Below, piece by piece: positions 5,476 to 40,155 of a stretch of DNA of 64,000 nucleotides (its first letter is position 1; each line of letters begins with the position of its first letter). The notes beneath the pieces are model-generated. The model saw only the letters and a list, made by a program, of their open reading frames with translations, made no database searches and had not been told where the DNA came from. Position numbers and translations under genes: made by a program. Origin of the DNA: an uncultured Lachnospiraceae bacterium. Its GTDB lineage: Bacteria; Bacillota; Clostridia; Lachnospirales; Anaerotignaceae. The stretch is taken from assembly GCA_944381395.1 (NCBI GenBank), contig CALWKY010000041.1:79942-143941 (forward strand). Direction: 5' to 3'.

Positions 5476-5543
5476 ACGATTTTTTCAAAAAGGCGGCTCT
5501 CCATACCGGGAACCGTCTTTTTTTCTAAAGAAAGGCTGAAATT

Positions 5544-6416: not shown

Positions 6417-7280
6417 ATGGAAAATAGACCTATTTCAAACGAAAGAAAACGGTACATATTCCTAATGAATGCCCTTATGACACTAGCAGTTGTTATCACC
6501 TGCGCGCTCACATTATTTTTCATTGTATATGTACTTTATAAAGGTTTCCCCCATATCACATGGGAGCTGCTCTCTACGGAGCCTAGTTACTTAGCTGATA
6601 CCATTGGTATTTTACCGGATATTTTAAACACACTATACATCTTACTGGCATCTTTGGTGCTGGTTTTGCCTCTGGGTGTTGGTGCTGCGGTTTATTTAAG
6701 CGAATATGCTACCAATCAGAAGGTAGTATCTCTTATCGAATATGCAGCTGAAACATTATCTGGTATTCCCTCTATTATTTACGGCTTGGTAGGTATGCTT
6801 TTCTTCTGCGAATTCTTAGGCATGAAGACTTCCCTTTTAGCAGGTGCTTGCACACTGGTAATCATGAATCTGCCTACCATCATGCGTACCACACAAGAAA
6901 GTTTGAAAACTGTACCGCAAAGCTACCGTGAGGGTGCCTTTGGATTAGGTGCAGGTAAATGGAGAGTCATTCGTACTGTAGTTTTGCCCAGCTGTATTGA
7001 CGGTATCATTACCGGCTGTATCCTTTCCATTGGTCGTATCCTCGGTGAATCCGCTGCGCTGTTATTTACCGCAGGTTTCGCGCATGCTACCAATGGCATT
7101 ATCGATGGATTACAAAACGCTGGTGCAACCCTAACCGTTGCATTGTATGTATACGCAAAAGAACAAGGTGAATTTGATGTTGCGTTTGCCATTGCCGCTA
7201 TCTTGATGGTGCTGGCGGTATTGATTAACACGGCTGCAACTCTTGTAGGTAAGCACTATCAGAAACGGAGAGATATATGA
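6417..7280 (+). CDS. pstA: Phosphate ABC transporter permease PstA
   Basis: 287 aa with the motif [15 protein letters not shown]. Its start abuts the pstC stop (TAAATG). Confidence 0.9.
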
Positions 7281-8032
7281 GTTCTATCATTACTGTAAAA
7301 GACATGTGCTTGTGGTATGGCAATTCCCAGGCATTAAAGGACATCAACATTGATATTGAAGAAAAAAGCATCACTGCCCTGATCGGACCTTCCGGCTGTG
7401 GTAAATCTACTTTCTTGAAAACATTAAATCGTATGAACGATTTGGTACCTGGTGTAAAAGTAACCGGCGATATCCGCTATCGTGGTCAAGATATTTTTGA
7501 TCCTCAGCTGGACGTAAATGAACTGCGCAGACAGGTTGGCATGGTATTCCAAAAGCCTAACCCCTTCCCCATGAGCATCTACGATAATATCGCCTATGGT
7601 CCCAGAACCCATGGTATCAAAAATAAGGCGAAACTGGATGATATTGTAGAACGCTCTTTGCGCGGTGCTGCTATTTGGGATGAAGTCCATGATCGACTGA
7701 AAAAATCCGCATTAGGTCTTTCCGGTGGTCAGCAGCAGCGCCTTTGCATTGCCAGAGCACTGGCAGTAGAACCTGATGTCCTGCTGATGGATGAACCTAC
7801 CAGCGCTTTGGACCCTATTTCCACATCCAAGATCGAAGATCTTGTCACAGAACTAAAAAATCAGTATACTATTATTATCGTTACACATAATATGCAGCAG
7901 GCTGTACGTATTTCTGATAATACCGCTTTCTTCTTGCTGGGCAACCTGATTGAATACGGCGATACAGAAAAAATGTTCTCTGAACCCAGAGACAAACGTA
8001 CAGAAGATTATATTACAGGGAGGTTCGGTTAA
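7277..8032 (+). CDS. pstB: Phosphate ABC transporter ATP-binding protein PstB
   Basis: 251 aa. Walker [10 protein letters not shown], signature [14 protein letters not shown], Walker B LLMDEP. ATGA overlap with pstA. Confidence 0.95.
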
Positions 8033-8034
8033 TT

Positions 8035-8688
8035 ATGAGAAGCAAATTCGACGAACAGCTTGCGCTGTTAAACAGAGAACTGACACAAATGGGTGCTATG
8101 TGCGAAGAAGCCATTGGTTTGGCTTCCGAAGCATTGGCAAAAGACAGCAAAGAAATCGCAGCAAAGGTATCCCCCGTGGATACAGAAATCGACCATATGG
8201 AGCGTACCATCGAAAACCTTTGCTTAAAGCTGTTACTGCAGCAGCAGCCTGTTGCTAAGGATCTGAGACAAATTTCCGCGGCTTTGAAAATGATTACCGA
8301 TATGGAACGTATTGGTGATCAGGCAGATGATATTGCAGAAATTATTTCCTATATGGAAGGGCACGATCCCAATCATTGTGCAGATATTTTGCAGATGGCG
8401 AATGAAGCCATTCAGATGGTAACAGAAAGTGTTAATTCCTATGTACAAAAGGATATGGATCTGGCAGAAAAAGCCATTGCCCATGATGATGTCGTAGATG
8501 AATATTTTGAAAAAGTAAAGTCTCATTTAATCGATATGATTGCAAATCAGCCGGATGATGGAAAATATGCACTGGATCTGCTGATGATCGCAAAGTATTT
8601 CGAAAGAATTGGGGACCATGCGGTAAATATTGCAGAATGGGTCGTTTTTTCCATTACTGGAGTTCATAAAGGAGAAGAAAAAGCATGA
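8035..8688 (+). CDS. phoU: Phosphate signalling complex protein PhoU
   Basis: 217 aa. Two PhoU repeats carry the E(R)IGD motifs MERIGDQADD and FERIGDHAVN. Confidence 0.9.
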   Translation: MRSKFDEQLALLNRELTQMGAMCEEAIGLASEALAKDSKEIAAKVSPVDTEIDHMERTIENLCLKLLLQQQPVAKDLRQISAALKMITDMERIGDQADDIAEIISYMEGHDPNHCADILQMANEAIQMVTESVNSYVQKDMDLAEKAIAHDDVVDEYFEKVKSHLIDMIANQPDDGKYALDLLMIAKYFERIGDHAVNIAEWVVFSITGVHKGEEKA

Positions 8689-9359
8689 TTTGGTGTGTAG
8701 AAGATGATGCCGGAATACGGGAAATCGAATTATATACCCTAAAAGCAACCGGATTTGAGGCCAGAGGGTTTGAGGAAAGTACTTCTTTTTGGGAAGCACT
8801 GAAAACAGATCAGCCAGAACTGATTTTGTTAGATGTTATGCTGCCTGGAGAAGATGGTGTTCAAATTTTAAAGAAGTTAAAAGCCTCTCCTGATACCTGC
8901 CGCATCCCTATTATTATGGCAACTGCAAAAGGCATGGAATATGATAAAATCCAGAGTTTGGATTTAGGCGCAGATGATTATTTGGTCAAGCCGTTTGGCA
9001 TGATGGAAATGATCTCTCGCATTAAAGCTGTTTTGCGTCGTTGCCAGCCTGTGGAAAAAGATCCCATTTTAACTTACGATTCTTTACAGATGAATTTAAA
9101 GGAGCACAGTGTTTCCATTGATGGGCAGATTATTAACTTAACTTATAAGGAGTATGAACTGTTAAAGCTATTCCTGCTCCATCCCGGCACAGCTTATACA
9201 CGAGAACAGCTGTTTAATGAAATTTGGGGCATGGACTACTGCGGAGAAACCCGAACTGTAGATATGCACATCCGTACGTTACGGCAAAAAATCGGTTCTT
9301 ATGGTGAAAAAATCCAAACCGTACGTAACGTAGGTTACCGAATGGAGGCGCAGAAATGA
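8685..9359 (+). CDS. phoP: OmpR-family response regulator (PhoP/PhoB-type)
   Basis: 224 aa. Receiver domain (LILLDVMLPGEDG, KPF) plus winged-helix domain (TRTVDMHIRTLRQK...VGYR). ATGA overlap with phoU. Confidence 0.85.
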   Translation: MIWCVEDDAGIREIELYTLKATGFEARGFEESTSFWEALKTDQPELILLDVMLPGEDGVQILKKLKASPDTCRIPIIMATAKGMEYDKIQSLDLGADDYLVKPFGMMEMISRIKAVLRRCQPVEKDPILTYDSLQMNLKEHSVSIDGQIINLTYKEYELLKLFLLHPGTAYTREQLFNEIWGMDYCGETRTVDMHIRTLRQKIGSYGEKIQTVRNVGYRMEAQK

Positions 9360-11017
9360 CAAAAAAAATACTTCGTTCCATGTTTTCTATGGCTTTTGTC
9401 ATACTCGTCGCTTCTTTTCTCATTCTTTTAGGTGCGTTATACAGCTACTTTACCAACTTGCAAGCTGATCGGCTGCGTTCTGAAATGAATCTGGCGGCAT
9501 ATAGTGTGTCTGAAGATGGGATTTCCTATTTAGAAAACCTGCAATCAACAGATTTTCGTCTGACCTGGATTGGAGCAGATGGCTCTGTTCTTTATGACAC
9601 ACATTTTAACGCAGAAGAAATGGAAAACCATAGCCAGAGAGAAGAAATTCAGTCCGCATTTGCGACCGGTGAAGGCGAAAGCAGCCGTTACTCCTCTACC
9701 CTCACAGAAAAAAACCTTTATTACGCAAAACTGCTGGAGGATGGCACTGTACTTCGTATCTCCACCAGCTACGCTGCCGTGCCAATGCTGGTTTTAGGGC
9801 TTTTGCCTCCCTTTGTATTGGTTTTTGGGTTTGCTCTGGTGTTAGCCGCAATTCTTTCCAAACGGTTATCTAATCGCATTGTAGCGCCTTTAAATGATTT
9901 AAATTTTGATGAACCATTAGAAAACAATACTTATGATGAATTGTCTCCTATGCTGGTACATATGGAACAACAACGCAGACAAATTACGCAGCAGTTAAGT
10001 GAATTAAAAAAGCAACAAAACGAATTTGCTGCTGTTACAAAAGATATGAAAGAAGGTTTGGTTCTGCTCAATGAGCAAGAAAGAATCCTGAGCATCAACG
10101 CAGCCGCCATGTCTTTTTTGGAAATTAAAGATGCCCATGCAGGCGAAGATTTCTTAGTGATTGAAAGAAATCGTGAAATTGATCAACTTTTGCAAAAAGC
10201 TTTGCAAAATGGCAGCAGCGAAGGTCAGATCAGTAAGCATGGAAGTATCTTCCAATTAAATGCTTCTCGTATTATGGCTGATGATAAAACCAGCGGTGTT
10301 GTTTTACTGATTTTTGATGTAACCGAAAAAGTCTTTGCGGAAAGAAACCGTAGAGAATTTACTGCAAATGTTTCTCATGAGTTAAAAACGCCCCTTCATG
10401 CCATTATGGGCAGTGCGGAATTACTGGAAAGTGGTTTGGTAAAAACAGAAGATATCCCCCGCTTTGTTGGTCAGATTCGCACAGAAGCAGATCGTCTGCT
10501 GTCTTTGATTGAAGATATCATTCGTCTGTCACAGCTGGATGAAAAGCGGGATTTACCTATGGAAACCCTTCGTTTAGACGAAATCGCAAAGAAAGAATTG
10601 GACGCCCTGTCTACTTCTGCCGCTGCCCATCAAGTAACTCTTTCTCTGGAAGCGAAGGAAATCACACTATACAGCAGCCAGCAACTGCTGCACGAAATTA
10701 TTTCAAACCTTTGCGAAAATGCCATTAAGTATAATCATGCTGGCGGAAAAGTTACGGTTGCTTTGGAAAAAACAGATGCTTTAGCCATGATTACTGTAAC
10801 AGATACTGGAATCGGTATTCCCCTCGAAGATCAGGCAAGAGTATTTGAACGTTTCTATCGGGTAGATAAGAGTCATTCCAAAGAAACGGATGGCACTGGA
10901 TTAGGTCTTTCCATTGTAAAACACGCTGTAGAGTACTTAGGTGGTACCATTCACCTAACCAGTACAGTAGGAAAAGGCAGCCAAATTCGTGTGACCCTTC
11001 CCTTAAATAAAAAATAA
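9356..11017 (+). CDS. phoR: Phosphate-sensing histidine kinase (PhoR-type)
   Basis: 553 aa. Two N-terminal TM segments, a PAS-like region, the H-box FTANVSHELKTPL, and N/G boxes (NAIKYN, DTGIGIP, GTGLGLSIV). Confidence 0.85.
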   Translation: MTKKILRSMFSMAFVILVASFLILLGALYSYFTNLQADRLRSEMNLAAYSVSEDGISYLENLQSTDFRLTWIGADGSVLYDTHFNAEEMENHSQREEIQSAFATGEGESSRYSSTLTEKNLYYAKLLEDGTVLRISTSYAAVPMLVLGLLPPFVLVFGFALVLAAILSKRLSNRIVAPLNDLNFDEPLENNTYDELSPMLVHMEQQRRQITQQLSELKKQQNEFAAVTKDMKEGLVLLNEQERILSINAAAMSFLEIKDAHAGEDFLVIERNREIDQLLQKALQNGSSEGQISKHGSIFQLNASRIMADDKTSGVVLLIFDVTEKVFAERNRREFTANVSHELKTPLHAIMGSAELLESGLVKTEDIPRFVGQIRTEADRLLSLIEDIIRLSQLDEKRDLPMETLRLDEIAKKELDALSTSAAAHQVTLSLEAKEITLYSSQQLLHEIISNLCENAIKYNHAGGKVTVALEKTDALAMITVTDTGIGIPLEDQARVFERFYRVDKSHSKETDGTGLGLSIVKHAVEYLGGTIHLTSTVGKGSQIRVTLPLNKK

Positions 11018-11049
11018 AAAGAACCGCAATAGAGGTTTCTTTATAAAAA

Positions 11050-11215
11050 CAAAGACAGCTGAAATCCTTACTTTGATAAGAATTTCAGCTGTTTCTTTTT
11101 GATCTGTATTGTTTTTTCTGGAGACAACCGTCGCAATTCCTCTTAAGAAATCAAAAGAAAGAAACATCATATTTTCTTAAGGGGAGATTGCATTGCGGTT
11201 CTTTTTTATCATTTA
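11050..11215 (-). repeat. Two-hairpin 3' intergenic element, copy A (downstream of the exonuclease gene)
   Basis: On the minus strand it contains:
- hairpin 1, GCAATCTCCCCTTAAGAAA / TTTCTTAAGAGGAATTGC, with a CU-rich loop
- the box GGAATTGCGACGGTTGTCTCC (11120-11140)
- hairpin 2, ACAGCTGAAAT.. (11055-11092), followed by a T-run
It is homologous to the copies at 33.9, 47.3 and 55.3 kb. Confidence 0.7.
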
Positions 11216-11226
11216 ATTGCGCTGCT

Positions 11227-11994
11227 TTATTCCTTCTTTTCCCGCTTTTTTAGTTTCAAATCATACTTTTGTATCCGTCCTAACTTATAAGCTTCCTTAA
11301 TCCAGCTCTGCTCTTCTTCCGAAAGCGCTCTTCCTGCTTTTTCAGTAAAATGGGTAAACAGCGCTTTGGTATCGATACGGGCACGGATTTTTTTTGCAGT
11401 CATCTGCAAGGGCTGGAATATTTCTGGTACAATCTTTTCCGGATGAACGATACGGAAAATTTCCGCTGTATAGGAAGCATCAGAAAAAGCATCATGAAAT
11501 GCATCAGAAATAGGAATCTGCAATGCAGTAACCGCATTTTTCAGACCAATGGAACGCCCTGCTTCCTGATGTAAATAAACAGATGCATACCCTTGAACAT
11601 CTATCATTTTATCCGTTATACTATCTACACTCAAATCATAATACAGAATGTTTTTAAAAAGGGATTTGATATCATCCTTTCCCCAAGTACATAAAACAGC
11701 GTCCTCACTGCCAATAAAAGCAGTAAACGCTTCAAATACAGCAGGGAAATCCGCTTGTCCTTGCAGCATTTCCGCATGGATTCCTGTAATTTTTTCCACA
11801 AAAGGATGAATACGGGGATAAATCTGTGGTTGGATCAATCGGTTAAATGTATCTACTGTCTGAAATTGTTCGTTCAGCTTTAATGCACCTATCTGAATGA
11901 TTTCAAATGGACATTCTGGTACCGTTACAGTAGATTTTCCAGTCTGAAAGGGAAAGGCTTGATTAAACTCCAAGTCTAATACAATATAATGCAT
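11227..11994 (-). CDS. DEDDh 3'-5' exonuclease domain protein (KapD/DnaQ-like)
   Basis: 255 aa. ExoI motif YIVLDLEFN, ExoII CTWGKDDIKSL, ExoIII HDAFSDASYTAEI. Confidence 0.75.
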   Translation of the reverse strand: MHYIVLDLEFNQAFPFQTGKSTVTVPECPFEIIQIGALKLNEQFQTVDTFNRLIQPQIYPRIHPFVEKITGIHAEMLQGQADFPAVFEAFTAFIGSEDAVLCTWGKDDIKSLFKNILYYDLSVDSITDKMIDVQGYASVYLHQEAGRSIGLKNAVTALQIPISDAFHDAFSDASYTAEIFRIVHPEKIVPEIFQPLQMTAKKIRARIDTKALFTHFTEKAGRALSEEEQSWIKEAYKLGRIQKYDLKLKKREKKE

Positions 11995-12074
11995 GGAAAA
12001 ATCCTCCTATTTTCATTTCCTATTACTTTTTCTATGATAGCATAGCCGGAAAGAAAGGAAAAGCAGTTTTTTTG

Positions 12075-12103
12075 TTGAATCTCCCTATTGGGGATGTTAC
12101 AAT
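12075..12103 (+). promoter_or_regulatory. Sigma-A-type promoter for the 83-aa ORF and alcohol dehydrogenase genes
   Basis: TTGAAT (12075-12080), 17-nt spacer, TACAAT (12098-12103). Confidence 0.5.
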
Positions 12104-12126
12104 GCAAAGTAAGGAGCGTGATCACT

Positions 12127-12378
12127 ATGAAACTCGTATTTCCTCAGGAAATGATTGATGCGAAAGAAAATCAAATTTACTTAGAAGATGATGATCTGTT
12201 GATGGAAGGCGAATATTTGGAAGGCGAAGGTAAGCATTATACCATCTGTGGTATCGCAACCATTGAAGGAGAACGCTACCACGATTTCATCATTGAATTT
12301 GAATTATTGGAAGAAGTAGACCCCACCTGTGAAGCGATTATGGCAGCAGAATGGGATTGGTATGATTTTTTATGTTAA
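12127..12378 (+). CDS. Small acidic hypothetical protein (83 aa)
   Basis: Start moved to MKLVFPQ, which has an AAGGAG RBS 8 nt upstream. I recognise no family. Confidence 0.5.
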   Translation: MKLVFPQEMIDAKENQIYLEDDDLLMEGEYLEGEGKHYTICGIATIEGERYHDFIIEFELLEEVDPTCEAIMAAEWDWYDFLC

Positions 12379-12396
12379 TCAGAAAGGAGTATTCCC

Positions 12397-13497
12397 ATGG
12401 TTGATTTTACTTATTTCATGCCGACTAAAATTTTTTATGGAAAAGATTGTGTCATTAAAAACGGAACTGTCCTTTCCACTTTAGGTAAGAAAGCAATGAT
12501 TGTCACAGGGCATTCCTCCGCAAAGAAAAATGGTGCCCTTACAGACATCAGAAGCGCATTAGAATGGGCTGGGATTGCATGGATACTCTTTGACGCAGTA
12601 GAAGAAAATCCCTCTGTACAGACCGTAGAACAAGGCGCAGCACTGGCAAGAGAAAAAGGCGTTGACTTTTTCATCGGTATTGGCGGCGGCTCCCCTATGG
12701 ATGCAGCCAAAGCGATGGCTTGTCTTGCGGCAAATCCCCAAAAATCCGGCGAAGATTTATACGGTGCTGCAATGTCCCATTTGCCTGTAGTCGCAATCCC
12801 TACCACAGCTGGAACGGGTTCAGAAGTCACTCAATTTTCCGTATTAACCAGACGCTCCATGCGTACCAAGGCTTCTATTTCTACCCATGTTTTTCCTGTA
12901 TTTGCATTTTTGGATGGAAAGTATATGGATACACTTTCTGCTCGTGTCACCAATGAAACAGCCGTAGATGCCCTCAGCCATTTAACAGAAAGTTATTTTC
13001 ATGCCCAAAGCAATATTATGAGCGAGATCGCAGTAGAATCCGGCTTTTTTATGTTTGCGAAATGTATCCCCTCTTTGCGGAAAAGAAACTACACCTCCAG
13101 CGATCGGCAGGCATTACTTCTGGCGTCTAATTTAGGTGGTATTGCCATTGCACAGACAGGCACCTCTCTGCCCCACGGTCTTGGATACTTCCTCACCTAC
13201 GAAAAAGGTATCCCTCATGGCAGGGCAAATGGCTTACTAATGGGTGCTTATTTGGATCTTTTTATGGAAAAAGAAGGAGAAAAAATTCAGAAAATGCTTT
13301 CTTTACTTGGTTTTTCCAGTTTAGAGGAGCTGAAAGCATTTTTCAAGGAAGTATTAGATACACCAGAAACTTTCTCCGATGCTCAAATCAAAGACTTTAC
13401 CAAACGCGTGATGGAAGCCCCTGCAAAATTGGCATCTTTCCCCTATCCTGTTACAGAAGAAGTGATTTACGAGCTGTATGCAAAGAGCTTATTATAA
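12397..13497 (+). CDS. Iron-containing alcohol dehydrogenase family protein
   Basis: 366 aa. GGGSPMDAAKA dinucleotide/metal motif and PTTAGTGSE, typical of Fe-ADH. Confidence 0.85.
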   Translation: MVDFTYFMPTKIFYGKDCVIKNGTVLSTLGKKAMIVTGHSSAKKNGALTDIRSALEWAGIAWILFDAVEENPSVQTVEQGAALAREKGVDFFIGIGGGSPMDAAKAMACLAANPQKSGEDLYGAAMSHLPVVAIPTTAGTGSEVTQFSVLTRRSMRTKASISTHVFPVFAFLDGKYMDTLSARVTNETAVDALSHLTESYFHAQSNIMSEIAVESGFFMFAKCIPSLRKRNYTSSDRQALLLASNLGGIAIAQTGTSLPHGLGYFLTYEKGIPHGRANGLLMGAYLDLFMEKEGEKIQKMLSLLGFSSLEELKAFFKEVLDTPETFSDAQIKDFTKRVMEAPAKLASFPYPVTEEVIYELYAKSLL

Positions 13498-13504
13498 ATA
13501 TTTC

Positions 13505-13538
13505 AAAAGCCTGTGTTGTTAAAACACAGGCTTTTTTT
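13505..13538. terminator. Bidirectional terminator between the ADH gene (+) and the YkvI-like gene (-)
   Basis: AAAAGCCTGTGTT-gtta-AAACACAGGCTTTTTTT. Confidence 0.8.
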
Positions 13539-13552
13539 AGATTATTTTTAGC

Positions 13553-14656
13553 TCATAATGTTTTTTTCGGCAAATTACCATATTTTTTTCGTTCGTTACG
13601 TACGCGAATCTGCTTTACAATCATAAATACCATAAATACCGCACCAATATATCCATAGAAGGAATAAATTTTATTTACTAACACATCAAAAGGAATAACC
13701 GCACCACTTACTAAGCAAACAATGCCTAAGGCAATTACAAGGATATTAAATTTCTTTGTTTTTTCCTTTGCAAAACGCGCGGAGAAATTCCACAGCATCG
13801 GCGCGGCAGAAGTATAAATTCCAAGCAATACAATAACAATAAAGAAAAGCCCCAAAAATGGTGAAATCTGTCCAGCAATATAGAGTGTAGGAATCATCTG
13901 CGCATGAACCAGTTCTATATCACTTAAAAACGCAAGAGAAATCGTAATAATGGTCACGCCTAAAGAAACGATACCAATAATTCCGCCCCATACCGCATTC
14001 TTTGTACAATTTGCTGTAGCGCCTACCATTGGCAAAAAAGGCGCCAAAGACAAAGACATAAATGAAGCATACATAAAACCAGAAATAAGCCAGTTTTCAG
14101 ACGGCTGCGGAATATCCAACGTGGAAACGGTAGAAAAGCCTTCTGTGAATCCCCCAAAATTTTGAATCAAAAAGGTAGCTGCGGTTGCAATGGTTGTTAC
14201 AATGATAACAGGACCAACGGCACCAATAATATCTACCACTTTTCTGAGTCCTAAAATTGCTGTAATCATAGACGCAGCTGCGAGAATTAAACTTCCAACA
14301 GCATTGGGCAGCCCCAAATACTGGTGGAAAGATGCGCCTGCACCAGAAAGAAATGTAATAAAACTTAAAATCATATAGGAAAATGCGACAAACTCAAATA
14401 TTCTGCCTGCTTTTTCGCCACAATAGTAAAAAAAGACCTCATTTACAGATGTGATACTGTTTTCCTTCCCTAGTTTCAAAAAAGACACACTCAAATAAAT
14501 ATAAAATACCATTGCAACAATGCATCCCAAAATGCCCAAAAGTCCGAAAGATGCAAAATATTGCAGCAATTCCTGACCAGTTGCAAAACCAGAGCCTACA
14601 ATAAACGCAACTAAAGCTCCACCGATTTTAATTACTTCCGCTACATTCTTTTTCAT
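13553..14656 (-). CDS. YkvI-family membrane protein (putative transporter)
   Basis: 367 aa and polytopic. The N-terminal GSGFATGQELLQYF matches the YkvI signature as I recall it. Confidence 0.65.
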   Translation of the reverse strand: MKKNVAEVIKIGGALVAFIVGSGFATGQELLQYFASFGLLGILGCIVAMVFYIYLSVSFLKLGKENSITSVNEVFFYYCGEKAGRIFEFVAFSYMILSFITFLSGAGASFHQYLGLPNAVGSLILAAASMITAILGLRKVVDIIGAVGPVIIVTTIATAATFLIQNFGGFTEGFSTVSTLDIPQPSENWLISGFMYASFMSLSLAPFLPMVGATANCTKNAVWGGIIGIVSLGVTIITISLAFLSDIELVHAQMIPTLYIAGQISPFLGLFFIVIVLLGIYTSAAPMLWNFSARFAKEKTKKFNILVIALGIVCLVSGAVIPFDVLVNKIYSFYGYIGAVFMVFMIVKQIRVRNERKKYGNLPKKTL

Positions 14657-14888
14657 CGTAATCCGTTCTCCTTTTTCATCAGGCTGGCATCATAAATAAA
14701 GTTCATTTCATTCATTTTTACAAAATACATTTGAAGTCGACCTTTTTACACCATACAAGCTTGCTTGGTTTATTTTGTGTTCTTAGTATATTACATCGTT
14801 TTTCATTTGTAAAACGAATTGATTTTATATTATCCATCAAAATAATTGATAGTTATTTTTTTCTTTTCCTAAATTTTTGTACAGAAAT

Positions 14889-14917
14889 AGAAAAAACCGA
14901 ACCTCTATGAGGTTCGG
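14889..14917. terminator. Orphan strong hairpin with an A-run 5' (reads as a minus-strand terminator)
   Basis: AAAAAA-CCGAACCTC-tat-GAGGTTCGG. There is no CDS immediately upstream on either strand. Confidence 0.5.
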
Positions 14918-32827: not shown

Positions 32828-32878
32828 TTCATTCAGTGATTGCGGCAAAGCTTTGGAATACAAAAAGGAGGGTCTTGT

Positions 32879-33859
32879 ATGCTAATTTTCGCCAATCTGA
32901 TTATTCTAATCATTAGTTTTATCGCTTTAATCAAAGGAGCGGATTTCTTTGTTGCTGGTTCATCCGCTTTGGCAAAGAAATTTCACATCCCCGCAGTTAT
33001 TATTGGTTTAACCATCGTTTCCATGGGTACCAGTGCGCCAGAATTGGCAGTCAGTCTTTCTGCCAGTTTAGCAGGTTCTAATGAAATTGCGATTAGTAAC
33101 GTATTAGGTTCCAATTTATTTAATCTGCTGGGTGTTCTGGGTGTTTGTTCCCTTTTTGGCGCAGTTCCTGTAGAAAAGAATATGATTGATTTTGATATCC
33201 CTTTCTCTGCCATCATTACAGCAATTTTAGGATTATTCTGTTTAGACTTTCTCTTTACTGGAGAAGGATTGCCTGCTTTAGATGCAGCTTGTGCAACATT
33301 GAGCCGTGTAGATGCTTTCTGCTTATGTATTCTATTTGCAGCATTCCTGAGACGCACAATCCGTTTAGCAAAACAAAAAACCATTGTAAATGAAGAAGAA
33401 GATATTATGGTCATGCCCCTTTCCAGAACATTACTCTTTATGGTTGCAGGTCTTGCAGCAATTATTCTCGGCGGTCATTTCACCGTAGAAAGTGCCAAAG
33501 AGTTAGCATATGCATTTGGTATGAGTGAAACATTGGTAGGTTTGACCATTGTAGCAATTGGTACTTCTCTGCCGGAATTGATCACTTCCGTAGTCGCTAG
33601 CCGTAAAGGAGAATCTGGTATTGCTGTCGGTAATGTAGTCGGCTCCAATATTTTCAATATCCTCTTTATTTTAGGTATTTCCGGCTTCATCGCTCCTATG
33701 GATGTATTAACTGTTTCTTTAGTTGATATCGTCATATTGTTAGCAGTAAGCCTGCTTTTCTTCCTCTTTGTAAAAAATGACGGAAAGCTGTCCAGAAAAG
33801 AAGGCATTTCCTTCTTAGTGATTTACGTTGCATATACTGTCTTTGCAGCATTGCGTTAA
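32879..33859 (+). CDS. CaCA-family calcium/sodium (cation) antiporter (YrbG-like)
   Basis: Start set at MLIFANL (AAGGAGG RBS). Two alpha-repeats, GTSAPELAVS...SNVLGSNLFN and GTSLPELITS...GNVVGSNIFN. Confidence 0.85.
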   Translation: MLIFANLIILIISFIALIKGADFFVAGSSALAKKFHIPAVIIGLTIVSMGTSAPELAVSLSASLAGSNEIAISNVLGSNLFNLLGVLGVCSLFGAVPVEKNMIDFDIPFSAIITAILGLFCLDFLFTGEGLPALDAACATLSRVDAFCLCILFAAFLRRTIRLAKQKTIVNEEEDIMVMPLSRTLLFMVAGLAAIILGGHFTVESAKELAYAFGMSETLVGLTIVAIGTSLPELITSVVASRKGESGIAVGNVVGSNIFNILFILGISGFIAPMDVLTVSLVDIVILLAVSLLFFLFVKNDGKLSRKEGISFLVIYVAYTVFAALR

Positions 33860-33861
33860 GT

Positions 33862-34020
33862 ATAAAAAGAACGGAGCAAACAGGTTCCCCTTAAGAAAAT
33901 ATTGGGTTTCTCATTTCCTGATTTCTTAAAAGGAACAGCTATCTTCATAAGAAAACAATTCCGATAAAATAAAATCGCGGGAATTTTTGCAACATAAAAG
34001 ATTCCCGCGATTTTTGTTTT
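33862..34020 (+). repeat. Two-hairpin 3' intergenic element, copy B (downstream of the antiporter gene)
   Basis: Hairpin 1 is GTTCCCCTTAAGAAA (33884-33898) with TTTCTTAAAAGGAAC (33922-33936). A spacer follows containing AAAACAAT. Hairpin 2 is TCGCGGGAAT (33975-33984) with ATTCCCGCGA (34001-34010), then TTTTTGTTTT. Confidence 0.65.
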
Positions 34021-34064
34021 CTTGTGAAGATGCCCCTTAAAGGCTCCATTCTTTTTTATTGCTT

Positions 34065-34961
34065 TTAACGATAATCCGCAATTTTTACACCTTCAGAAAC
34101 AATAATCTCTTTCAATTTCTGCATTGCTTCCGGTGTTGGTCTATAAAAATCTGCACTGGGCAGTTCCATTCCAAGCGCTTCATATTTGATGGTGCCAAAT
34201 TTGTGATACGGCAGCAGTTCCATCTTTGCTTTCGGCAAATTCTTATGCACGAAAGCAGCACTCTTGCGAATATTCTCCTCACTATCATTAACACCACCAA
34301 TAACCGGAATACGAATCACTACATCTGCAGGAACCAAATTCAGGTTCTGGATATTCTTCAGCGTACGGGCATTGCTCACACCGGTATACTGTCTGTGTAC
34401 ATCTGGATCCATATGTTTCAAATCCATAAAAATCAAGTCCATACGTTCCAGAGATTTTTTTACACTTTCAAACTTAAAATACCCGCAAGTTTCGATGTCT
34501 AAGCTATATCCCATATCATATAACTTGCTGGTCAGATAATCTAAAAGTTCAGGCTGTGCTGTTGCCTCACCACCGGAAAAAGTTACGCCGCCGCCGGAAT
34601 ACTGATAAAAAATACTATGTTTTTTTACTTCTGCAATAACTTCATCCGCATCCCGGAACGTAACCAACCGACTTCTGGCTCCTTTCGGGCAAACATCCAC
34701 ACAAGCACCGCAGCCAATGCACTTATCCCTTTCCAAGTTCATATTGATGCCAATTCCTTGGGGGCAAACTTTTGTACAAGCGCCGCAGCCAATACATTTT
34801 CTTTCATACCATCCAACCAAAGGCTTTTGGGAAAAGCCTTCGGGATTCGAACACCATTTACAACGCAAAGGACAGCCTGCCATAAAAATGGTGGTACGAA
34901 TTCCTTCCCCGTCATTTACGGAAAAAGGCTGTGCCTGCATGATATATCCTTTCACACCCAT
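34065..34961 (-). CDS. Glycyl-radical enzyme activating protein (radical SAM, with a ferredoxin-like insert)
   Basis: Start set at MGVKGYIMQ. Radical-SAM motif CPLRCKWC, plus two additional clusters, CIGCGACTKVCP and CIGCGACVDVCP. A glycine-rich SAM motif is also present. Confidence 0.9.
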   Translation of the reverse strand: MGVKGYIMQAQPFSVNDGEGIRTTIFMAGCPLRCKWCSNPEGFSQKPLVGWYERKCIGCGACTKVCPQGIGINMNLERDKCIGCGACVDVCPKGARSRLVTFRDADEVIAEVKKHSIFYQYSGGGVTFSGGEATAQPELLDYLTSKLYDMGYSLDIETCGYFKFESVKKSLERMDLIFMDLKHMDPDVHRQYTGVSNARTLKNIQNLNLVPADVVIRIPVIGGVNDSEENIRKSAAFVHKNLPKAKMELLPYHKFGTIKYEALGMELPSADFYRPTPEAMQKLKEIIVSEGVKIADYR

Positions 34962-35103
34962 GATGATCTTCCTTTCTTTATTTCTTTTGTCATGCTGACA
35001 AGAAATCTGCATATTTTCTACCCTCATTTTATCTTGTTTCAGAGAAAATAGCAAGAAAATTTCCTTACATAGATACGAAAAAACGCACAAACTGTACATT
35101 GCA

Positions 35104-35119
35104 AAAATGTGCACATTTT
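35104..35119. promoter_or_regulatory. Perfect 16-bp palindrome (candidate operator) upstream of the activase gene
   Basis: AAAATGTGCACATTTT lies in the 306-nt spacer between the GRE stop and the activase start. Confidence 0.35.
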
Positions 35120-35196
35120 ATATTTCTATATTTTTCGGCATTTCTAAGGATCGCATCCAATTTTTCTTTTTCATGTGTGCGTTAAATTGCATTTTT

Positions 35197-35226
35197 CAAA
35201 AAAAGAAGAGAGCTTACGCTCTCTTC
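35197..35226 (-). terminator. Rho-independent terminator directly after the glycyl-radical enzyme gene
   Basis: Minus strand reads GAAGAGAGC-gtaa-GCTCTCTTC followed by TTTTTTT. Confidence 0.75.
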
Positions 35227-35267
35227 TCTTATGGTATCATCCCACCGAGATGAAACCTTATCATCAA

Positions 35268-37640
35268 TTAGAATTCTTCGTGTGCATTTCTTGCCATGAT
35301 GGAATCCTGCATGGACTTGGACAGGTTTACAAACTGTGTGCTGTAACCAGCTACACGAACCAGCAGATCCTTGTAGTTTTCGGGATGAGCCTGTGCATCC
35401 TTCAAAGTTTCGTTAGATACAGTGTTGAACTGTACATGGAAACCACCCATTGCAAAGTAAGACTGCAGCATTGCACCCAAGTTTGCACGACCACGTTCGG
35501 TAGCAACCAGGTCATGGTTCAGACGCAGGTTCAACAGAGTACCGCCGGCATGGATGTCGTGACCCATCTTTGCAGAAGAACGCAGAGCTGCCAGGCAGGT
35601 AGAAGTATCGGAACCAGTGTAAGGAGATACACCTTCGGTGATGGGCTCAGTTGCCTTTCTGCCATCAGGAGTAGCACCCAGAACCTTACCAGTAGGCAGG
35701 TAGTTGGAGATACCCATGAATGCAGTGGTGAAATGATGACCATAGTAGTCGGTGTAAGAAGTTACATCGTGATAGTAGTAGTCAGCCAATTCCTTAGCGA
35801 TGCTATCAACATAGTCGATATCATTGCCGTATTTCGGAACAGCCTGAACCTTTGCACGCAGTTCATCGAAGCCTTCCCAGTTAGCATTCAGAGCATCGAT
35901 CAGTTCGCTCATGGTAGTAACCTTATCTTCAAATACCAGCTTCTTGATTACAGCGAAGCAGTTAGCGGTAACTGCCAGACCACAACCAGTGAATACAGGT
36001 CCGATGTTATACTTAGCGCCGCCATCTACCAGATCGGCACCATTCTTTACGCAATATTCATTGCAAGCAGACAGGAACGGACGAGGAGCCTTTTCCTGGT
36101 TGATCTCCTGAGCGGTAATCAAGCTGATTACACCATGTTTTACCATGTAGGAGAACTGTCTGAAGTATGCCTGCTTGATTTCTTCATAAGAAGTAAAGGT
36201 CTTAGGATCCTTTTCAGGCAGAGCTACCAGCTTGCCAGTCAGTCTGCTCTTACCTTCATTCAGAGCAAATTCCAGAGCAGCGGTGAAGCTGATGTTGCAA
36301 GAAGAAGTCCATTCGAAAGTCTTTCTGGAGTGAGGAACTACACAACCGCAGTTGCTCCAGTCTTTTGCATCGTCTGCATCGCAGCCCAAGTTTCTCAGCA
36401 TCTGATAACCAACACGGTCACTGTGGATTGCAGGGAAACCACAACCAGTTGCAACCAGGCTGGTAACTGCTTCCATAAATTCAGGAGGGCAGTCAGGCTG
36501 AATACGGCAGCTCAAAGTAGGCTGGTGCGTCTTGATTTCCTTGGTAGCCTGGATAGCCATGTAAGAAATGGTGTTGATACCATTGGAACCATCTACTTTG
36601 GTACCACCGATGGTCAGGTTTTCGAAGTTGGTGTAACCAGCAAAGAAACCTGCGGTATTGGAAGAAATAACCCATACCCATTCGGAATACTTTAACCACA
36701 GGCATTCAACCAATTCCAGAGCGGTATCATAGTCGATCTTGCCTGCTTTTTCATCTGCTTCATAGTAAGGGTACATGAACTGGTCAAAACGACCGATGTT
36801 CAGTGCCAGAGGGTTTTCAGCGATAATGCCGCCCAGTTCTACAAACCATGCAAACTGGATTGCTTCACGGAAGGACGTAGGAGGATTTTCAGGTACTGCT
36901 GCACAGTTCTTAGCGATCTGTTCCAGTTCAGCCTTTCTGGTTGCATCCTTTTCTACTGCTGCCATTTCCAGAGCCTTTTCGCTGTAACGGTTTGCCAGTC
37001 TTACGATACCATCGCAAACCAGGATAATGGACTTGTAGAAATCCATCTTCTTCATATCTTCAGCCTTGGTTTCATCCAGCTGAGACATACGTTCCATAGC
37101 TTCTCTCTTGATACCGCCAAATCCCTTCGGGAACAGCTGATCAGCGTAGTCGGGAGTAATTTCACCGATACCACCACGCCACTTAGAGTCGGTATCCAGG
37201 AAACCGGTATCTACACCAATTCTCTTGGTTTCATCAGATACACGAGCCAGGAAAGTATCTTCTACAGACTTGCCCTTCCAATAAGGGAAGATTTCCTTAC
37301 GGCAGAATTCTCTCTGTTCATCTGTCATATCATAAGGATCCTGAGGACGGGTTGCGAAATTATCCATTTCGTCGTTTACCCACTTCCAACCATATTCGGG
37401 AGTCAAAATACCGCATCTACGATATTCACCGCTGGCACCAACGATCAGTTCACCCTCGAAAATGTTTACAGGAAGTTCATTACAAGCATCATAGAATGCC
37501 TGTGCGGTACGAATCTGCTGAGGCAGACCTTCCGTTCTCTTAAAGGACTCCGTCCAGATTCTTGCTCTTTCGCAAGAAATGTGGGGTCTTTCGTTCAGAT
37601 AGTTCTGACGAATCTTTTCCACTCTCTCTGTTACTGCCAT
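35268..37640 (-). CDS. Glycyl-radical enzyme of the PFL2/dehydratase-like class; substrate unknown
   Basis: 790 aa. C-terminal glycyl-radical motif VRVAGYS (Gly765). Cys loop N-C-G-C433-V-V-P-H. Overall length and layout resemble the 787-790-aa GRE dehydratases. Confidence 0.9.
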   Translation of the reverse strand: MAVTERVEKIRQNYLNERPHISCERARIWTESFKRTEGLPQQIRTAQAFYDACNELPVNIFEGELIVGASGEYRRCGILTPEYGWKWVNDEMDNFATRPQDPYDMTDEQREFCRKEIFPYWKGKSVEDTFLARVSDETKRIGVDTGFLDTDSKWRGGIGEITPDYADQLFPKGFGGIKREAMERMSQLDETKAEDMKKMDFYKSIILVCDGIVRLANRYSEKALEMAAVEKDATRKAELEQIAKNCAAVPENPPTSFREAIQFAWFVELGGIIAENPLALNIGRFDQFMYPYYEADEKAGKIDYDTALELVECLWLKYSEWVWVISSNTAGFFAGYTNFENLTIGGTKVDGSNGINTISYMAIQATKEIKTHQPTLSCRIQPDCPPEFMEAVTSLVATGCGFPAIHSDRVGYQMLRNLGCDADDAKDWSNCGCVVPHSRKTFEWTSSCNISFTAALEFALNEGKSRLTGKLVALPEKDPKTFTSYEEIKQAYFRQFSYMVKHGVISLITAQEINQEKAPRPFLSACNEYCVKNGADLVDGGAKYNIGPVFTGCGLAVTANCFAVIKKLVFEDKVTTMSELIDALNANWEGFDELRAKVQAVPKYGNDIDYVDSIAKELADYYYHDVTSYTDYYGHHFTTAFMGISNYLPTGKVLGATPDGRKATEPITEGVSPYTGSDTSTCLAALRSSAKMGHDIHAGGTLLNLRLNHDLVATERGRANLGAMLQSYFAMGGFHVQFNTVSNETLKDAQAHPENYKDLLVRVAGYSTQFVNLSKSMQDSIMARNAHEEF

Positions 37641-37698
37641 TTTAATTCACCAATCCTTTCGATAGGTTAAAATAATAAGTGATAAATAGCTTTCGTTG

Positions 37699-38253
37699 TT
37701 ACATTTTGTAATAGATCAGCATACCCATTTTAGCAGGAGTTGCACCAATATTTTCATACCGGTGTAACTTATCTGCGGTAAACCGAATTCCCTCTCCGCC
37801 TTCCAGCTCATACTGCTGTTCTGCTACGGTAATCCGTACCTTTCCTTCGAAAACGATAATCATTTCTTCTGTTCCTTCTTCATGAGGTGCAGAAGGTGAA
37901 TCAGCGCCTTCGTCCATTTCGATGTAAATGAGTTCGAAATGTCTATTTTCTTCATAAGGAAACATGGGATAAAGTCGGAACTGACCGTGATCGCTAAGCA
38001 AAGGTTTCAGCTCATCTTTTTTCACTAAATAAGTTCCTTCTTCTTGCTGTTCCATCAACGCCGTAAAGGAGATATGCAAACCAGTTGCTATCTTCCAAAG
38101 GGTCGCAATCGTCGGGCTGGATTCTCCCCGCTCGATCTGACCCAACATACTTTTGCTGACGCCTGTCATTTCTGAAACATTATCCAGGCTCAGCTTTTTT
38201 TCCTTCCGAATTTTCTTTAGATTATCGGAAATTGTAGCACTCATGACATCCAT
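37699..38253 (-). CDS. XRE-family transcriptional regulator with a C-terminal cupin domain
   Basis: Start set at MDVMSATI (GGGGGA RBS). HTH LSLDNVSEMTGVSKSMLGQIERGES. Cupin motifs ...HEEGTEEMIIVFEG... and ...FTADKLHRYEN.... Confidence 0.85.
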   Translation of the reverse strand: MDVMSATISDNLKKIRKEKKLSLDNVSEMTGVSKSMLGQIERGESSPTIATLWKIATGLHISFTALMEQQEEGTYLVKKDELKPLLSDHGQFRLYPMFPYEENRHFELIYIEMDEGADSPSAPHEEGTEEMIIVFEGKVRITVAEQQYELEGGEGIRFTADKLHRYENIGATPAKMGMLIYYKM

Positions 38254-38379
38254 ATAAGAATCCCCCTGTTTTGCTTCTCCAAAATCATTTTTTTCATCCA
38301 AAGCCCGCAGGAAAATTTTTTGTGCTGCCACGCCGTTGTCATCCAAATGGATTCGGAAAGCGATATTTTGCGTTTCGTG

Positions 38380-38431
38380 CGTTATAACGAACGCTTAATG
38401 TAAAGATAACACAAACAATAACGATTGTCAA
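38380..38431 (-). promoter_or_regulatory. Promoter and candidate operator of the XRE-cupin regulator
   Basis: On the minus strand: TTGACA (38426-38431), 17-nt spacer, TATCTT (38403-38408). The palindrome CGTTATAACG (38380-38389) lies just downstream of the -10. Confidence 0.5.
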
Positions 38432-38628
38432 CAATGCTAAATGCACAAAAAACGAGGCTTGAATTTGTTTAAGAAACGCAATAGACCGCCATTTTTTATA
38501 GGTTCCATACAACTTTTACAAATTCTTTTCGAAAACACTTTCTTGTTTTCAAGCAGTTTTCAAATAAGAACCATTTTCTGTTATAATAGCTGCAAAAAAT
38601 ACTTTCCATTGCCGTAAATAGATTGGTC

Positions 38629-39822
38629 TTACTCCATATCATGCACAATTTCGTCCAATAGACAATGTGCCACTTCTGCTTTGCTCAGCAGTTCCAGTTC
38701 TTTCTCCCATTTTGCCGTAATCAGTGTAACGCGGTTTGTATCTGTACCAAAGCCGCTGCCGGCTACTTTCAGGTTATTGGCAGCGATCATATCGATATGC
38801 TTTTTGTTCAGCTTTACTCTGGAGTTTTCCAGCATGTTCTGTGTCTCCATGGAAAATCCACATAAATACTGTCCTTCTTTACGGTGTTCACCCAAATAAA
38901 GTAAAATATCTTTTGTCCGCTCCAACGGTATGGACATATCTCCGTCTGTTTTTTTCACTTTTTCATCATAAGTTTGCGCCGGACGGTAATCCGCCACAGC
39001 AGCTGCTTTAATGATGATATCCTGCTCCGGTGCAGCCTGCGAAACAGCCTGGAACATATCCTCTGCGCTGACAATAGGAACCATCTTCACAAAGGGAACA
39101 GGCTCTAATGCCGTTACGCCGCTGACCAAAGTTACTTCCGCGCCGCGCAGCATAGCTGCTCTTGCAATCTCATAGCCCATCTTTCCTGAGGAATGATTGG
39201 TAATATAACGCACAGGATCAATTTTTTCCCGGGTCGGTCCAGCAGTTACCAGTACCTTTTTGCCTGTCAAATCCTTAGGATAAGCAATGGCACGCAGAAT
39301 ATGATCCAGCAATACCTTTTCAGAAGGTAATTTCCCCTCTCCTTCATCCCGGCATGCTAAGAATCCGCTGTCCGGCGTAATCACTTCCCAGCCAAAACGT
39401 TCCAGTTTATTCAGGTTGTCCTGCACAATGGGATTGCGATACATATTGGTATTCATGGCAGGGCTGATCATCTTGGGACAAGTGCAGGCAAGGACAGAAC
39501 TGGTTAACATATCATCTGCAATTCCATTTGCCAGTTTTCCAATAACATCTGCAGAAGCAGGCACCACAAAAAACAGATCTGCCATCTTCGCCAGCGCAAT
39601 ATGAGGTACATGCAATTTACTGCTGGGATCAAAACTATCGATAAAACATTCATTGCCCGTTAAGGTTTCAAATGTGGTAGGCGTAATAAACTGCGCTGCA
39701 TTTTTTGTCATTACGACATGCACATCACAGTGCTGCTTCACCAGCATACTTGCCAGATTTGCAATTTTATATGCAGAAATACTGCCGCAAACGCCTAATA
39801 CAACACATTTTCCTTTTAACAT
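38629..39822 (-). CDS. coaBC: Bifunctional phosphopantothenoylcysteine decarboxylase / phosphopantothenate-cysteine ligase
   Basis: Start set at MLKGKCVVLGVCGSISAYK (GGAGGG RBS). Flavoprotein N-terminal domain plus a CoaB domain (TAGPTREKIDPVRYITNHSSGKMG). Confidence 0.9.
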   Translation of the reverse strand: MLKGKCVVLGVCGSISAYKIANLASMLVKQHCDVHVVMTKNAAQFITPTTFETLTGNECFIDSFDPSSKLHVPHIALAKMADLFFVVPASADVIGKLANGIADDMLTSSVLACTCPKMISPAMNTNMYRNPIVQDNLNKLERFGWEVITPDSGFLACRDEGEGKLPSEKVLLDHILRAIAYPKDLTGKKVLVTAGPTREKIDPVRYITNHSSGKMGYEIARAAMLRGAEVTLVSGVTALEPVPFVKMVPIVSAEDMFQAVSQAAPEQDIIIKAAAVADYRPAQTYDEKVKKTDGDMSIPLERTKDILLYLGEHRKEGQYLCGFSMETQNMLENSRVKLNKKHIDMIAANNLKVAGSGFGTDTNRVTLITAKWEKELELLSKAEVAHCLLDEIVHDME

Positions 39823-40155
39823 ACAGGAATCCCTCCCTCTTTCTCGGAAAATCAATGGGAAAACCGCTTCATTTCCCTTTTTTCGCAATTATTTAATTTT
39901 AACATAATTTTAATAAAAAGAAAAGCATTCTGACAAAAAACCAACCTTTTCATATGATATGGACTCTCACGGAATTCATCCAAAAATAGAAAGAAAAGCA
40001 TCCTACGGGTTCCTCTTTCAGAAAATATCCCTTTTCCCTTTGATTGTTTAGAAAAACAGCTGCCTTCATAAATACCAAGCTGAATAAAAAAGCTGGAATT
40101 CCAAATAAGGATTCCAGCTATATTTTTTGTTAAAACAGTCTTAGGGCTTTCTTTT

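Follow-up and report, generated by a model that had tools for sequence, protein, structure and literature searches.

The glycyl radical enzyme cassette

The stretch of DNA analysed here (the window) comprises 64,000 nucleotides of contig CALWKY010000041.1 (positions 79,942 to 143,941 of the forward strand, assembly GCA_944381395.1) from an uncultured Lachnospiraceae bacterium. On its minus strand three genes encode a regulator, a glycyl radical enzyme (GRE) and a GRE activase. Their positions, taken from the listing of open reading frames (ORFs) and read again from the DNA, were those given in the original prediction, in which a model had interpreted the letters of the window. We consider it very probable that the locus encodes a functional GRE belonging to a distinct, uncharacterised family. 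The principal features are the following.

37699-38253, minus strand: regulator of the XRE family with helix-turn-helix and cupin domains, 184 amino acids (Pfam HTH_3, 1.4e-14; Cupin_2, 1.1e-12)
35268-37640, minus strand: GRE, 790 amino acids (Pfam PFL-like PF02901, 673 bits; Gly_radical PF01228, 108 bits)
34065-34961, minus strand: GRE activase, a radical SAM protein of 298 amino acids (Pfam Radical_SAM and two Fer4)
35340-35357, minus strand: glycyl radical motif RVAGYS, with Gly765 at 35346-35348, read from the DNA
36330-36353, minus strand: cysteine loop N430-C431-G-C433-V-V435-P-H437, read from the DNA
37161-37163, minus strand: codon of Glu160, an invariant, family-specific carboxylate

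The ORFs of all three genes are intact. Membership of the GRE superfamily is supported by the barrel and glycine-radical domains, the RVxG[FWY] motif (present as RVAGYS with Gly765, as had been predicted), the position of Cys433 at the tip of the loop and the cognate activase gene next to the enzyme gene. The activase contains the CxxxCxxC motif and two CxxCxxCxxxCP ferredoxin motifs; it scored 312 bits against TIGR02494 (cut-off 174) and stayed under the cut-off of all substrate-specific activase equivalogs. In the regulator the HTH_3 domain spans residues 12-64 and the Cupin_2 domain residues 111-176. Its closest solved relative, 1y9q, is homologous across residues 5-170 and has no assigned function. 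The XRE-cupin protein is presumed to be the small-molecule sensor of the cassette.

The codons of the cysteine loop are TGC GGT TGT GTA GTT CCT CAC, of which TGT GTA GTT (Cys433-Val434-Val435) lie at 36344-36336, precisely where the original prediction had located them. The same prediction had claimed that the loop holds no second cysteine. This has to be corrected, as an invariant Cys431 sits two residues before Cys433 in the same loop.

A family defined by its cysteine loop

Approximately 180 homologues with 56-92% identity to the GRE carry the sequence CGCVVPH, and their hosts include Anaerotignum, Sedimentibacter, Tissierella, Clostridium carboxidivorans, Peptoclostridium acidaminophilum, Vibrio and Cohaesibacter. 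The best 120 database matches (74-92% identity; Anaerotignum, Clostridium sp. MD294 and many gut metagenomes) read CGCVVPH with a single exception, in which the family alignment shows Trp at the place of Cys433, and RVAGYS was present in all 120. When one genome of each GTDB species was scanned, about 60 further members with 59-66% identity were found, in Sedimentibacter, Tissierella, Gudongella, Clostridium carboxidivorans, C. drakei, C. tanneri, Desulfosporosinus, Geosporobacter, Acetoanaerobium, Dialister, Vibrio and Cohaesibacter. Inspection of the Cys-loop column across orthologues, a check proposed with the original prediction, showed W-N-N/S-C-G-C-V-V-P-H in every full-length genomic copy (58/58, 59-92% identity). 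The copy on the 809-kb replicon of P. acidaminophilum is 55.7% identical and keeps CGCVVPH. The CGCVVPH loop is thus a trait of the family, not a sequence error or a chance mutation.

The active-site residues were constant across about 125 family members and then across the 58 full-length ones. In the latter, whose minimum identity is 59%, 283 positions are invariant, including Gly765, Cys433 and the whole pocket. Judged by these alignments, the family is under strong purifying selection. It occurs in about 60 species-level genomes of Clostridia, Tissierellia, Negativicutes, Vibrio and Alphaproteobacteria, and single 90%-identity clusters contain up to 1409 metagenomic sequences. No evidence of mobility was found: the only matches in the plasmid collection were the chromid-sized P. 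acidaminophilum replicon and a mis-filed chromosome.

In a neighbour-joining (NJ) tree, which carried out the phylogenetic placement suggested earlier, the family formed a distinct monophyletic clade on a long stem (200/200 bootstraps). Among 50%-identity representatives the next full-length relative beyond the family, a cluster designated P0123, is only 40% identical, and bona fide CutC follows with 35-36%.

Two family loci contain disrupted GRE genes, which represent either pseudogenes or assembly errors. In Tissierella praeacuta DSM 18095 (L068, 9230-9480) a deletion of about 85 nt removes exactly the Cys loop, and in Firmicutes UBA2530 (L069) there is a frameshift near residue 380. Selenocysteine (UGA) at the loop was considered for these split ORFs and was excluded by the deletion and the frameshift. 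The member in P. acidaminophilum (Eubacterium) is encoded on plasmid EAL2_808p (723146-726503, L091) next to a GntR gene and has all signature residues; this cultivable and well-studied host is a classic reducer of glycine, sarcosine and betaine.

Residues of the active site

An AlphaFold2 (AF2) model of the GRE, computed with 80 diverse GREs in the alignment, had a predicted local distance difference test score (pLDDT) of 95.3. An earlier run with 23 close homologues had given a pLDDT of 60, with active-site segments below 50, and was discarded. The AF2 model superposed on CutC with a template modelling (TM) score of 0.98 and a root mean square deviation of 1.2-1.3 Å over 789 columns; TM scores were 0.95-0.98 with the dehydratases and 0.94-0.98 with the solved GREs overall. 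The comparison of a structure model with solved enzymes, another of the proposed checks, therefore yielded a fold close to that of CutC, and residues were then compared by alignment. Because the model superposes on CutC and the dehydratases, the residue equivalences of the alignment appear structurally sound. In the model the loop tip, G432-C433, lies between strands 429-431 and 435-437.

The residues closest to choline in D. alaskensis CutC (5FAU; PMC12838924) were taken as the pocket of CutC, and the alignment assigned to them the following residues of the GRE.

CutC Y208: S152
CutC D216: E160
CutC T334: L278
CutC F389: F333
CutC F395: F339
CutC M487: C431
CutC C489: C433
CutC E491: V435
CutC T502: T445
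CutC Y506: N449
CutC L698: M642
CutC I700: I644

All 12 residues are invariant or nearly so within the family. The loop was matched to M487-G-C489-V-E491 of CutC, and in the HMMER alignment to solved structures Val435 stands under the Glu of GCVE in both CutC and HpyG. The predicted Val at the general-base position was thereby borne out, and it is invariant in the family.

The GRE was then compared with the 143 nearest non-family representatives of 50%-identity clusters (within P0123-P0269). The second residue after the catalytic Cys is Glu in 105 of these and another residue (Q, S, D, H, A, T, G, N, R, K or Y) in 38; Val was not encountered at this position. At position 160, His was found in 99 representatives and Glu in only two. 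The combination of Glu160 and Val435 occurs in all family members and in 0/143 of the representatives. Cys at the position two residues before the catalytic Cys, invariant as Cys431 in the family, was present in three.

Glu160 occupies the position of CutC Asp216, of His164 in glycerol dehydratase (GD), of His160 in HypD and of Gln193 in IslA. In GD, His164 protonates the leaving hydroxyl, and in CutC, Asp216 faces the trimethylammonium group. Modelling of CutC discussed Asp216 as a proton acceptor via Thr502, and Met487 is among the residues closest to bound choline (PMC12838924). Glu160 is a candidate either for a cation anchor or for a relocated acid/base. Further invariant residues specific to the family are D151, K153, W154, R155, E275, N281, W321, W323, H437, R439, N646 and H697, of which His437 belongs to the loop.

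Similarity to characterised enzymes

The best NCBIfam model (June 2026) was that of CutC (TIGR04394), at 701 bits; its cut-off is 1050, and true CutC reaches about 1600 bits. All other equivalogs, those of the PflD type included, likewise stayed below the cut-off (in parentheses): HpsG, 590 (1000), HypD, 558 (1100), HpfG, 485 (1000), PRK09983, 483 (1109), IAD, 387 (1100), HPAD, 330 (1150), and pyruvate formate-lyase (PFL, TIGR01255), 139 (994). Even the PFL2-3 subfamily model gave 621 bits, below its cut-off of 678. In the search of the PDB the scores were 580-660 bits for CutC, 581 for HpyG, 540 for GD, 495-508 for propanediol dehydratase (PD), 503 for HpzG, 463 for HypD, 459 for IseG, 431 for HpsG, 418 for IslA, 385-416 for PflD/YbiW and 343 for HplG; the lowest were those for AAD (341), BSS (277), MASS (259), HPAD (233) and PFL (106). 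CutC was the nearest clade in the NJ tree as well. The length and numbering resemble those of the dehydratases, as predicted: the length is the same and the numbering (Cys433 and Gly763-765) almost so.

A recent review (Imrich et al., June 2026; PMC13450708) states that every known GRE eliminase and isomerase (six C-O eliminases, CutC, three C-S lyases and three isomerases) keeps the CXE motif (Cys, any residue, Glu), whose Glu is hydrogen-bonded to the substrate in these enzymes, and that Glu491 of CutC is catalytically essential. The original prediction had stated that characterised eliminases keep this Glu, and the review confirms it. The same source lists Gln484 of phenylacetate decarboxylase at the site of the CXE Glu, knows two loop cysteines only in PFL and TdcE, and notes that whole GRE clades remain unvalidated (PMC13450708).

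The GRE was also measured against the hallmarks of the known classes. In place of CXE it has an invariant C433-V-V435. Only Phe389, Phe395 and Thr502 of the choline-binding set of CutC are kept, the changes being D216E, Y208S, Y506N, T334L and E491V. The loop reads C431-G-C433, not the CC of formate-lyases. A small-subunit ORF as in HPAD was not conserved, and the IAD and HPAD cut-offs were not reached. Similarity to the X-succinate synthases BSS and MASS was low, and accessory beta/gamma ORFs were not conserved.

Public databases give family proteins only generic names, and no characterisation of the CGCVVPH family was found in the literature or in curated models. Tight clustering with a characterised GRE having the same GCVVP loop, which by the original prediction would have meant that the function was already known, was seen in neither the review, the models nor the tree. 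The monophyly of the family, the failed equivalog cut-offs and the review together support the earlier suggestion of a GRE clade with different chemistry or a substrate not yet known.

The P0123 cluster belongs to another uncharacterised system, with several GREs. Its locus (L007-L010, approximately 4950-14900) encodes three, P0123 itself with GCVEPQ and two paralogues with GCVEPQ and GCTESL, together with one activase, a ROK regulator, a diaminopimelate-dehydrogenase-like and a shikimate-dehydrogenase-like protein. None of the three GREs fits a known equivalog.

Gene neighbourhood

The cassette is flanked by the following genes, in agreement with its predicted placement between coaBC and a cation antiporter gene.

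38629-39888: CoaBC
32840-33859: Na/Ca exchanger gene, convergent with the activase gene

The surrounding window is housekeeping chromosome (SMC, FtsY, Ffh, DnaE, pyruvate kinase, GlnRS, HtpG), and a composition scan detected no GC anomaly at the cassette.

The genes co-occurring with the GRE, which the original prediction had advised looking at in other genomes, were compared by ORF clustering across 65 family loci. Conservation was confined to three genes, those of the GRE (65 loci), the activase (64) and the XRE-cupin protein (56), in otherwise unrelated surroundings. One metagenomic lineage (L006) has a LysR gene in place of the XRE-cupin gene, and P. acidaminophilum has a GntR gene; given these exchanges, the unit seems always to consist of a regulator, the enzyme and the activase. 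The earlier view of the cupin protein as the sensor of the cassette is supported by its position next to the GRE gene in 56 of the 65 loci and by a conserved candidate operator in the promoter region (see below).

No transporter, microcompartment shell or aldehyde/alcohol dehydrogenase gene was conserved across the 65 loci, and a cut cluster with shell and aldehyde-processing genes was not found in the 64-kb window. The absence of transporter, microcompartment and pathway genes noted in the original prediction thus extends to the family, as none is conserved with the cassette. Neither was a conserved reductant, CoA-handling or thioredoxin-like gene present near the family loci. Clusters c3-c19, found in 5-16 loci, were rejected as functional partners: their genes (MurJ/MATE-like, CopA, CsoR, AKR, IlvB, IlvC, DnaD/DnaC-like) reflect housekeeping synteny of the Sedimentibacter lineage, and the recurring cluster c10 is a mixture of unrelated ABC ATPases. 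The Proteobacterial loci share no transporter: one Vibrio locus has TauE/SafE, a second has GntP together with tetronate genes, and Cohaesibacter has a sugar-type ABC system. In the first of these, Vibrio sp. YIC-376 (L050, 7010-7792), the gene of the TauE/SafE sulfite/anion exporter lies directly upstream of the GRE gene and co-directional with it; as the arrangement was seen at no other locus, it was left out of the evidence.

Putative promoters, operator and terminators

The following candidate control signals were found in and around the cassette.

38403-38431, minus strand: promoter-like site upstream of the regulator gene (TTGACA, 17 nt spacer, TG-TATCTT)
38380-38389: palindrome CGTTATAACG, a candidate operator that directly follows the -10 hexamer
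35195-35230, minus strand: intrinsic-terminator-like hairpin with 13-bp stem, GUAA loop and U-run, 38 nt past the GRE stop codon
35054-35026: weak promoter-like site ahead of the activase gene
33971-34014: hairpin terminator of 18 pairs between the convergent activase and Na/Ca exchanger genes, closing the cassette

The promoter upstream of the regulator gene has 10 of 12 consensus matches and an extended -10 TG, an assignment by consensus match only. The order of TTGACA, -10 hexamer and palindrome is repeated in the orthologous loci L001 and L011-L014. CGTTATAACG has one copy in the 64-kb window. Of 58 family loci, 19 have it, with one mismatch or none, no more than 300 nt from the start of the regulator gene, where a background density of 0.022 per 300 nt would lead one to expect about 1.3; the exact 8-mer GTTATAAC was present in 15 of the 58. 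The palindrome (C/T)GTTATAACG follows the promoter and precedes the XRE-cupin gene in lineages as distant as Anaerotignum, Geosporobacter, Desulforamulus, Peptoniphilaceae and Cohaesibacter (L001, L004, L011-L017, L030, L034, L037, L047, L052, L057, L070 and L074). From this distribution we infer that CGTTATAACG is the operator of an autoregulated regulator-GRE operon and is bound by the XRE-cupin protein. Other lineages, C. carboxidivorans and Sedimentibacter among them, seem to use another operator site.

The spacer between the GRE and activase genes (34962-35267) is 306 nt long, and mostly 80 nt or less in other loci. Its part from 35195 to 35267 can form two stable hairpins, the second being the 13-bp terminator; the fold of the latter has -31.1 kcal/mol (z = -5.9), and none of 200 shuffled sequences was as stable. 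The terminator in the long spacer and the weak promoter-like site before the activase gene suggest that the activase is expressed at a lower level than the GRE. An Rfam scan of 33800-38700 revealed no credible RNA element.

Proposed chemistry and alternatives

Taken together, we favour the interpretation, with a probability of roughly 55 per cent, that the cassette is functional, self-contained and ligand-regulated, and that its GRE belongs to a distinct and widespread family whose chemistry differs from CXE-dependent elimination. According to this proposal, the activase would install the radical at Gly765, from which the thiyl radical at Cys433 would be generated. The thiyl would attack a small substrate, possibly cationic (an amine, ammonium or sulfonium compound), held by Glu160 and the Phe pair. 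As the site of the deprotonating Glu is occupied by an invariant Val and no aldehyde-handling genes accompany the cassette, the reactive carbon would probably carry no hydroxyl to deprotonate, and the reaction would differ from the ketyl-type 1,2-elimination performed by CutC and by the dehydratases. Acid/base help could come from Glu160, Thr445 and His437. The product would not be a free aldehyde, which fits the absence of microcompartment and aldehyde-handling genes. The XRE-cupin protein would repress the promoter at CGTTATAACG and release it when the substrate or an inducer is bound by the cupin domain, and the terminator past the GRE gene would hold activase expression low.

Two parts of this picture are more tentative than the whole. 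The retained Phe pair and Glu160 suggest a cationic substrate, but we would put this forward with reserve. It is likewise conceivable, though we would not count on it, that the reaction lies outside the known GRE classes (formate-lyase, arylacetate decarboxylase, X-succinate synthase and CXE-dependent eliminase or isomerase). One possibility would be a CutC-derived enzyme whose substrate is a cationic isostere of choline lacking the hydroxyl at C1 (a betaine, a sulfonium compound or an N-methylated glycine, for instance); another would be chemistry performed by the Cys431/Cys433 pair.

Several observations weigh against the proposed departure from CXE-dependent elimination and the use of a CutC-like pocket. 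The placement as sister of CutC is weak (94 of 200 NJ bootstraps). Glu is also missing from 38 of the 143 related clusters (27%), so its loss alone defines no chemistry. The resemblance of the pocket to that of CutC rests on five identical and two conservative positions of 12, and the family-specific polar residues K153, R155, E275, N281, R439, N646 and H697 could bind an anionic group. The mechanism past radical generation is argued from homology, and if Glu160 comes within reach of the substrate it could serve as a general base at a new site, in which case the enzyme would be an ordinary eliminase after all. The original prediction had named a Glu supplied from elsewhere as an outcome that would overturn it; the invariant Glu160 of the active site is a candidate for such a residue, and Val435 remains in the column of the CXE Glu.

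An ordinary GRE 1,2-eliminase or dehydratase of this kind would have its base moved to Glu160, perhaps relayed by Thr445 or His437, and its aldehyde or ketone would be left to housekeeping enzymes. The fold and the nearest relatives, all eliminases, agree with it, as does the invariant, family-specific Glu160, which occupies a catalytic or substrate-binding position of GD, HypD, CutC and IslA and is one methylene longer than Asp216 of CutC; Thr445, moreover, corresponds to CutC Thr502, the proposed proton relay to Asp216. However, all twelve characterised eliminases and isomerases keep CXE despite widely different substrates, Glu491 of CutC being essential, and the residue at position 160 lies on the leaving-group side in these enzymes, not on the hydroxyl side. 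Nor was an aldehyde/alcohol dehydrogenase or microcompartment gene conserved near any of the 65 loci. We therefore judge this explanation unlikely, although it deserves to be kept in mind.

The stand-alone layout of regulator, GRE and activase would fit a terminal reaction, and phenylacetate decarboxylase also works without the CXE Glu (Gln484). The GRE could accordingly be a radical decarboxylase of a small acid, Kolbe-type or by H-atom transfer as in HPAD, PAD and IAD, acting for example on an isostere of choline such as dimethylglycine or glycine betaine; speculatively, it would release an amine or a hydrocarbon, volatile or diffusible, for which no downstream pathway is required. Replacement of Glu by Val beside the thiyl would relieve charge repulsion with the carboxylate of the substrate, the CutC-type Phe pair and carboxylate are kept, and many hosts ferment glycine, sarcosine or betaine (P. 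acidaminophilum, Tissierella, Sedimentibacter). This is a still less probable reading in view of the low similarity to the decarboxylases (IAD 387 against 1100, HPAD 330 against 1150, AAD 341 bits in the PDB search). The literature ties no GRE to such a reaction, the proposed substrate is pure speculation, and the alpha-ammonio radical formed from a quaternary betaine would, by established radical chemistry, be poorly stabilised.

A role of Cys431 together with Cys433 appears improbable. Such a pair might act as in PFL (covalent thiyl addition and an acyl-enzyme), in a reductive elimination resembling that of class III ribonucleotide reductase (RNR), or as an H-atom donor from the opposite face, as in an epimerase. 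Cys431 is invariant in the family and rare elsewhere (3/143), aligns with Met487 of CutC, close to bound choline, and lies on a strand flanking the loop tip in the AF2 model; outside RNR two loop cysteines are known only in PFL and TdcE. The two cysteines are, however, spaced as C-x-C, whereas those of PFL adjoin each other (C-C); the PFL model gave 139 bits against 994, no conserved reductant, CoA-handling or thioredoxin-like gene was found nearby, and Cys431 may merely replace Met, Val or Ile sterically.

That the enzyme is a decaying or non-catalytic paralogue which lost its catalytic Glu is hardly credible: some family copies are disrupted (the deletion in T. praeacuta L068 and the frameshift in L069), but 283 positions, among them Gly765, Cys433 and the pocket, are invariant in 58 proteins of several phyla, the activase is kept in 64 and the dedicated XRE-cupin regulator in 56 of 65 loci, and the ORFs in the window are intact.

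Significance

Reactions of GREs in gut and sediment that affect health or the environment include the formation of trimethylamine from choline and of H2S from isethionate, as well as that of p-cresol, skatole and toluene. To our knowledge, every newly characterised GRE clade has revealed a new pathway. Unannotated GRE clades as such are already known, and the set of GREs with non-canonical loops is large and mostly unexplored; the value of the present family lies in its being a sharply defined, widespread clade, close to CutC, with an experimentally tractable cassette. It stands nearest to the drug target CutC and yet breaks the motif common to all studied eliminases and isomerases, and its loop has a second cysteine. 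Homology-based surveys of cutC could mis-score the family, and profiles with lax thresholds would catch its members. The compact unit with its recognisable operator should make inducer screening and heterologous reconstitution straightforward. If the reaction proves to be new, it would give gut anaerobes and fermenters of amino acids a further radical pathway, and perhaps reveal another source of methylamines.

Comparison with known systems

Among the solved GREs, CutC (5FAU, 5A0U) is the best match in both sequence (approximately 36-37% identity) and structure. CutC and the GRE have in common the Phe389/Phe395 pair, Thr502, Ile700, both loops (Gly and Cys) and an activase with a ferredoxin insert; position 216 retains a carboxylate, with Glu in place of the Asp of CutC, and Met stands for Leu698. 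In contrast to CutC, the GRE has Val for Glu491, Ser for Tyr208, Asn for Tyr506, Leu for Thr334 and Cys for Met487, and the cassette, in the window as in the 65 loci, lacks a microcompartment or aldehyde-handling gene cluster.

The dehydratases GD (1R9D), PD (5I2G, 9RCO), HypD (6VXE), HpyG (8ID1) and HpzG (8IOF) resemble the GRE in fold, length, nearly identical numbering and type of activase, with 33-38% identity, whereas their pair of His(160/164) and Glu(435/436) is replaced by Glu160 and Val435. PFL and TdcE belong to the same superfamily, but have adjacent cysteines (Cys418-Cys419) in contrast to the C-G-C of this loop, and similarity to them is very low. With phenylacetate decarboxylase (PhdB/PAD) the GRE shares the absence of the CXE Glu (Gln484 in PAD), and with GRE decarboxylases in general a simple gene cluster without downstream pathway genes; those enzymes, however, have about 870-900 amino acids and pockets for aromatic acids, and are distant in sequence. 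The P0123 cluster, from human and animal gut metagenomes, is similar in having Glu at position 160, in failing all equivalog cut-offs and in its 40% identity, but P0123 retains GCVEP, and its locus contains two other GRE paralogues, a ROK regulator and dehydrogenases.

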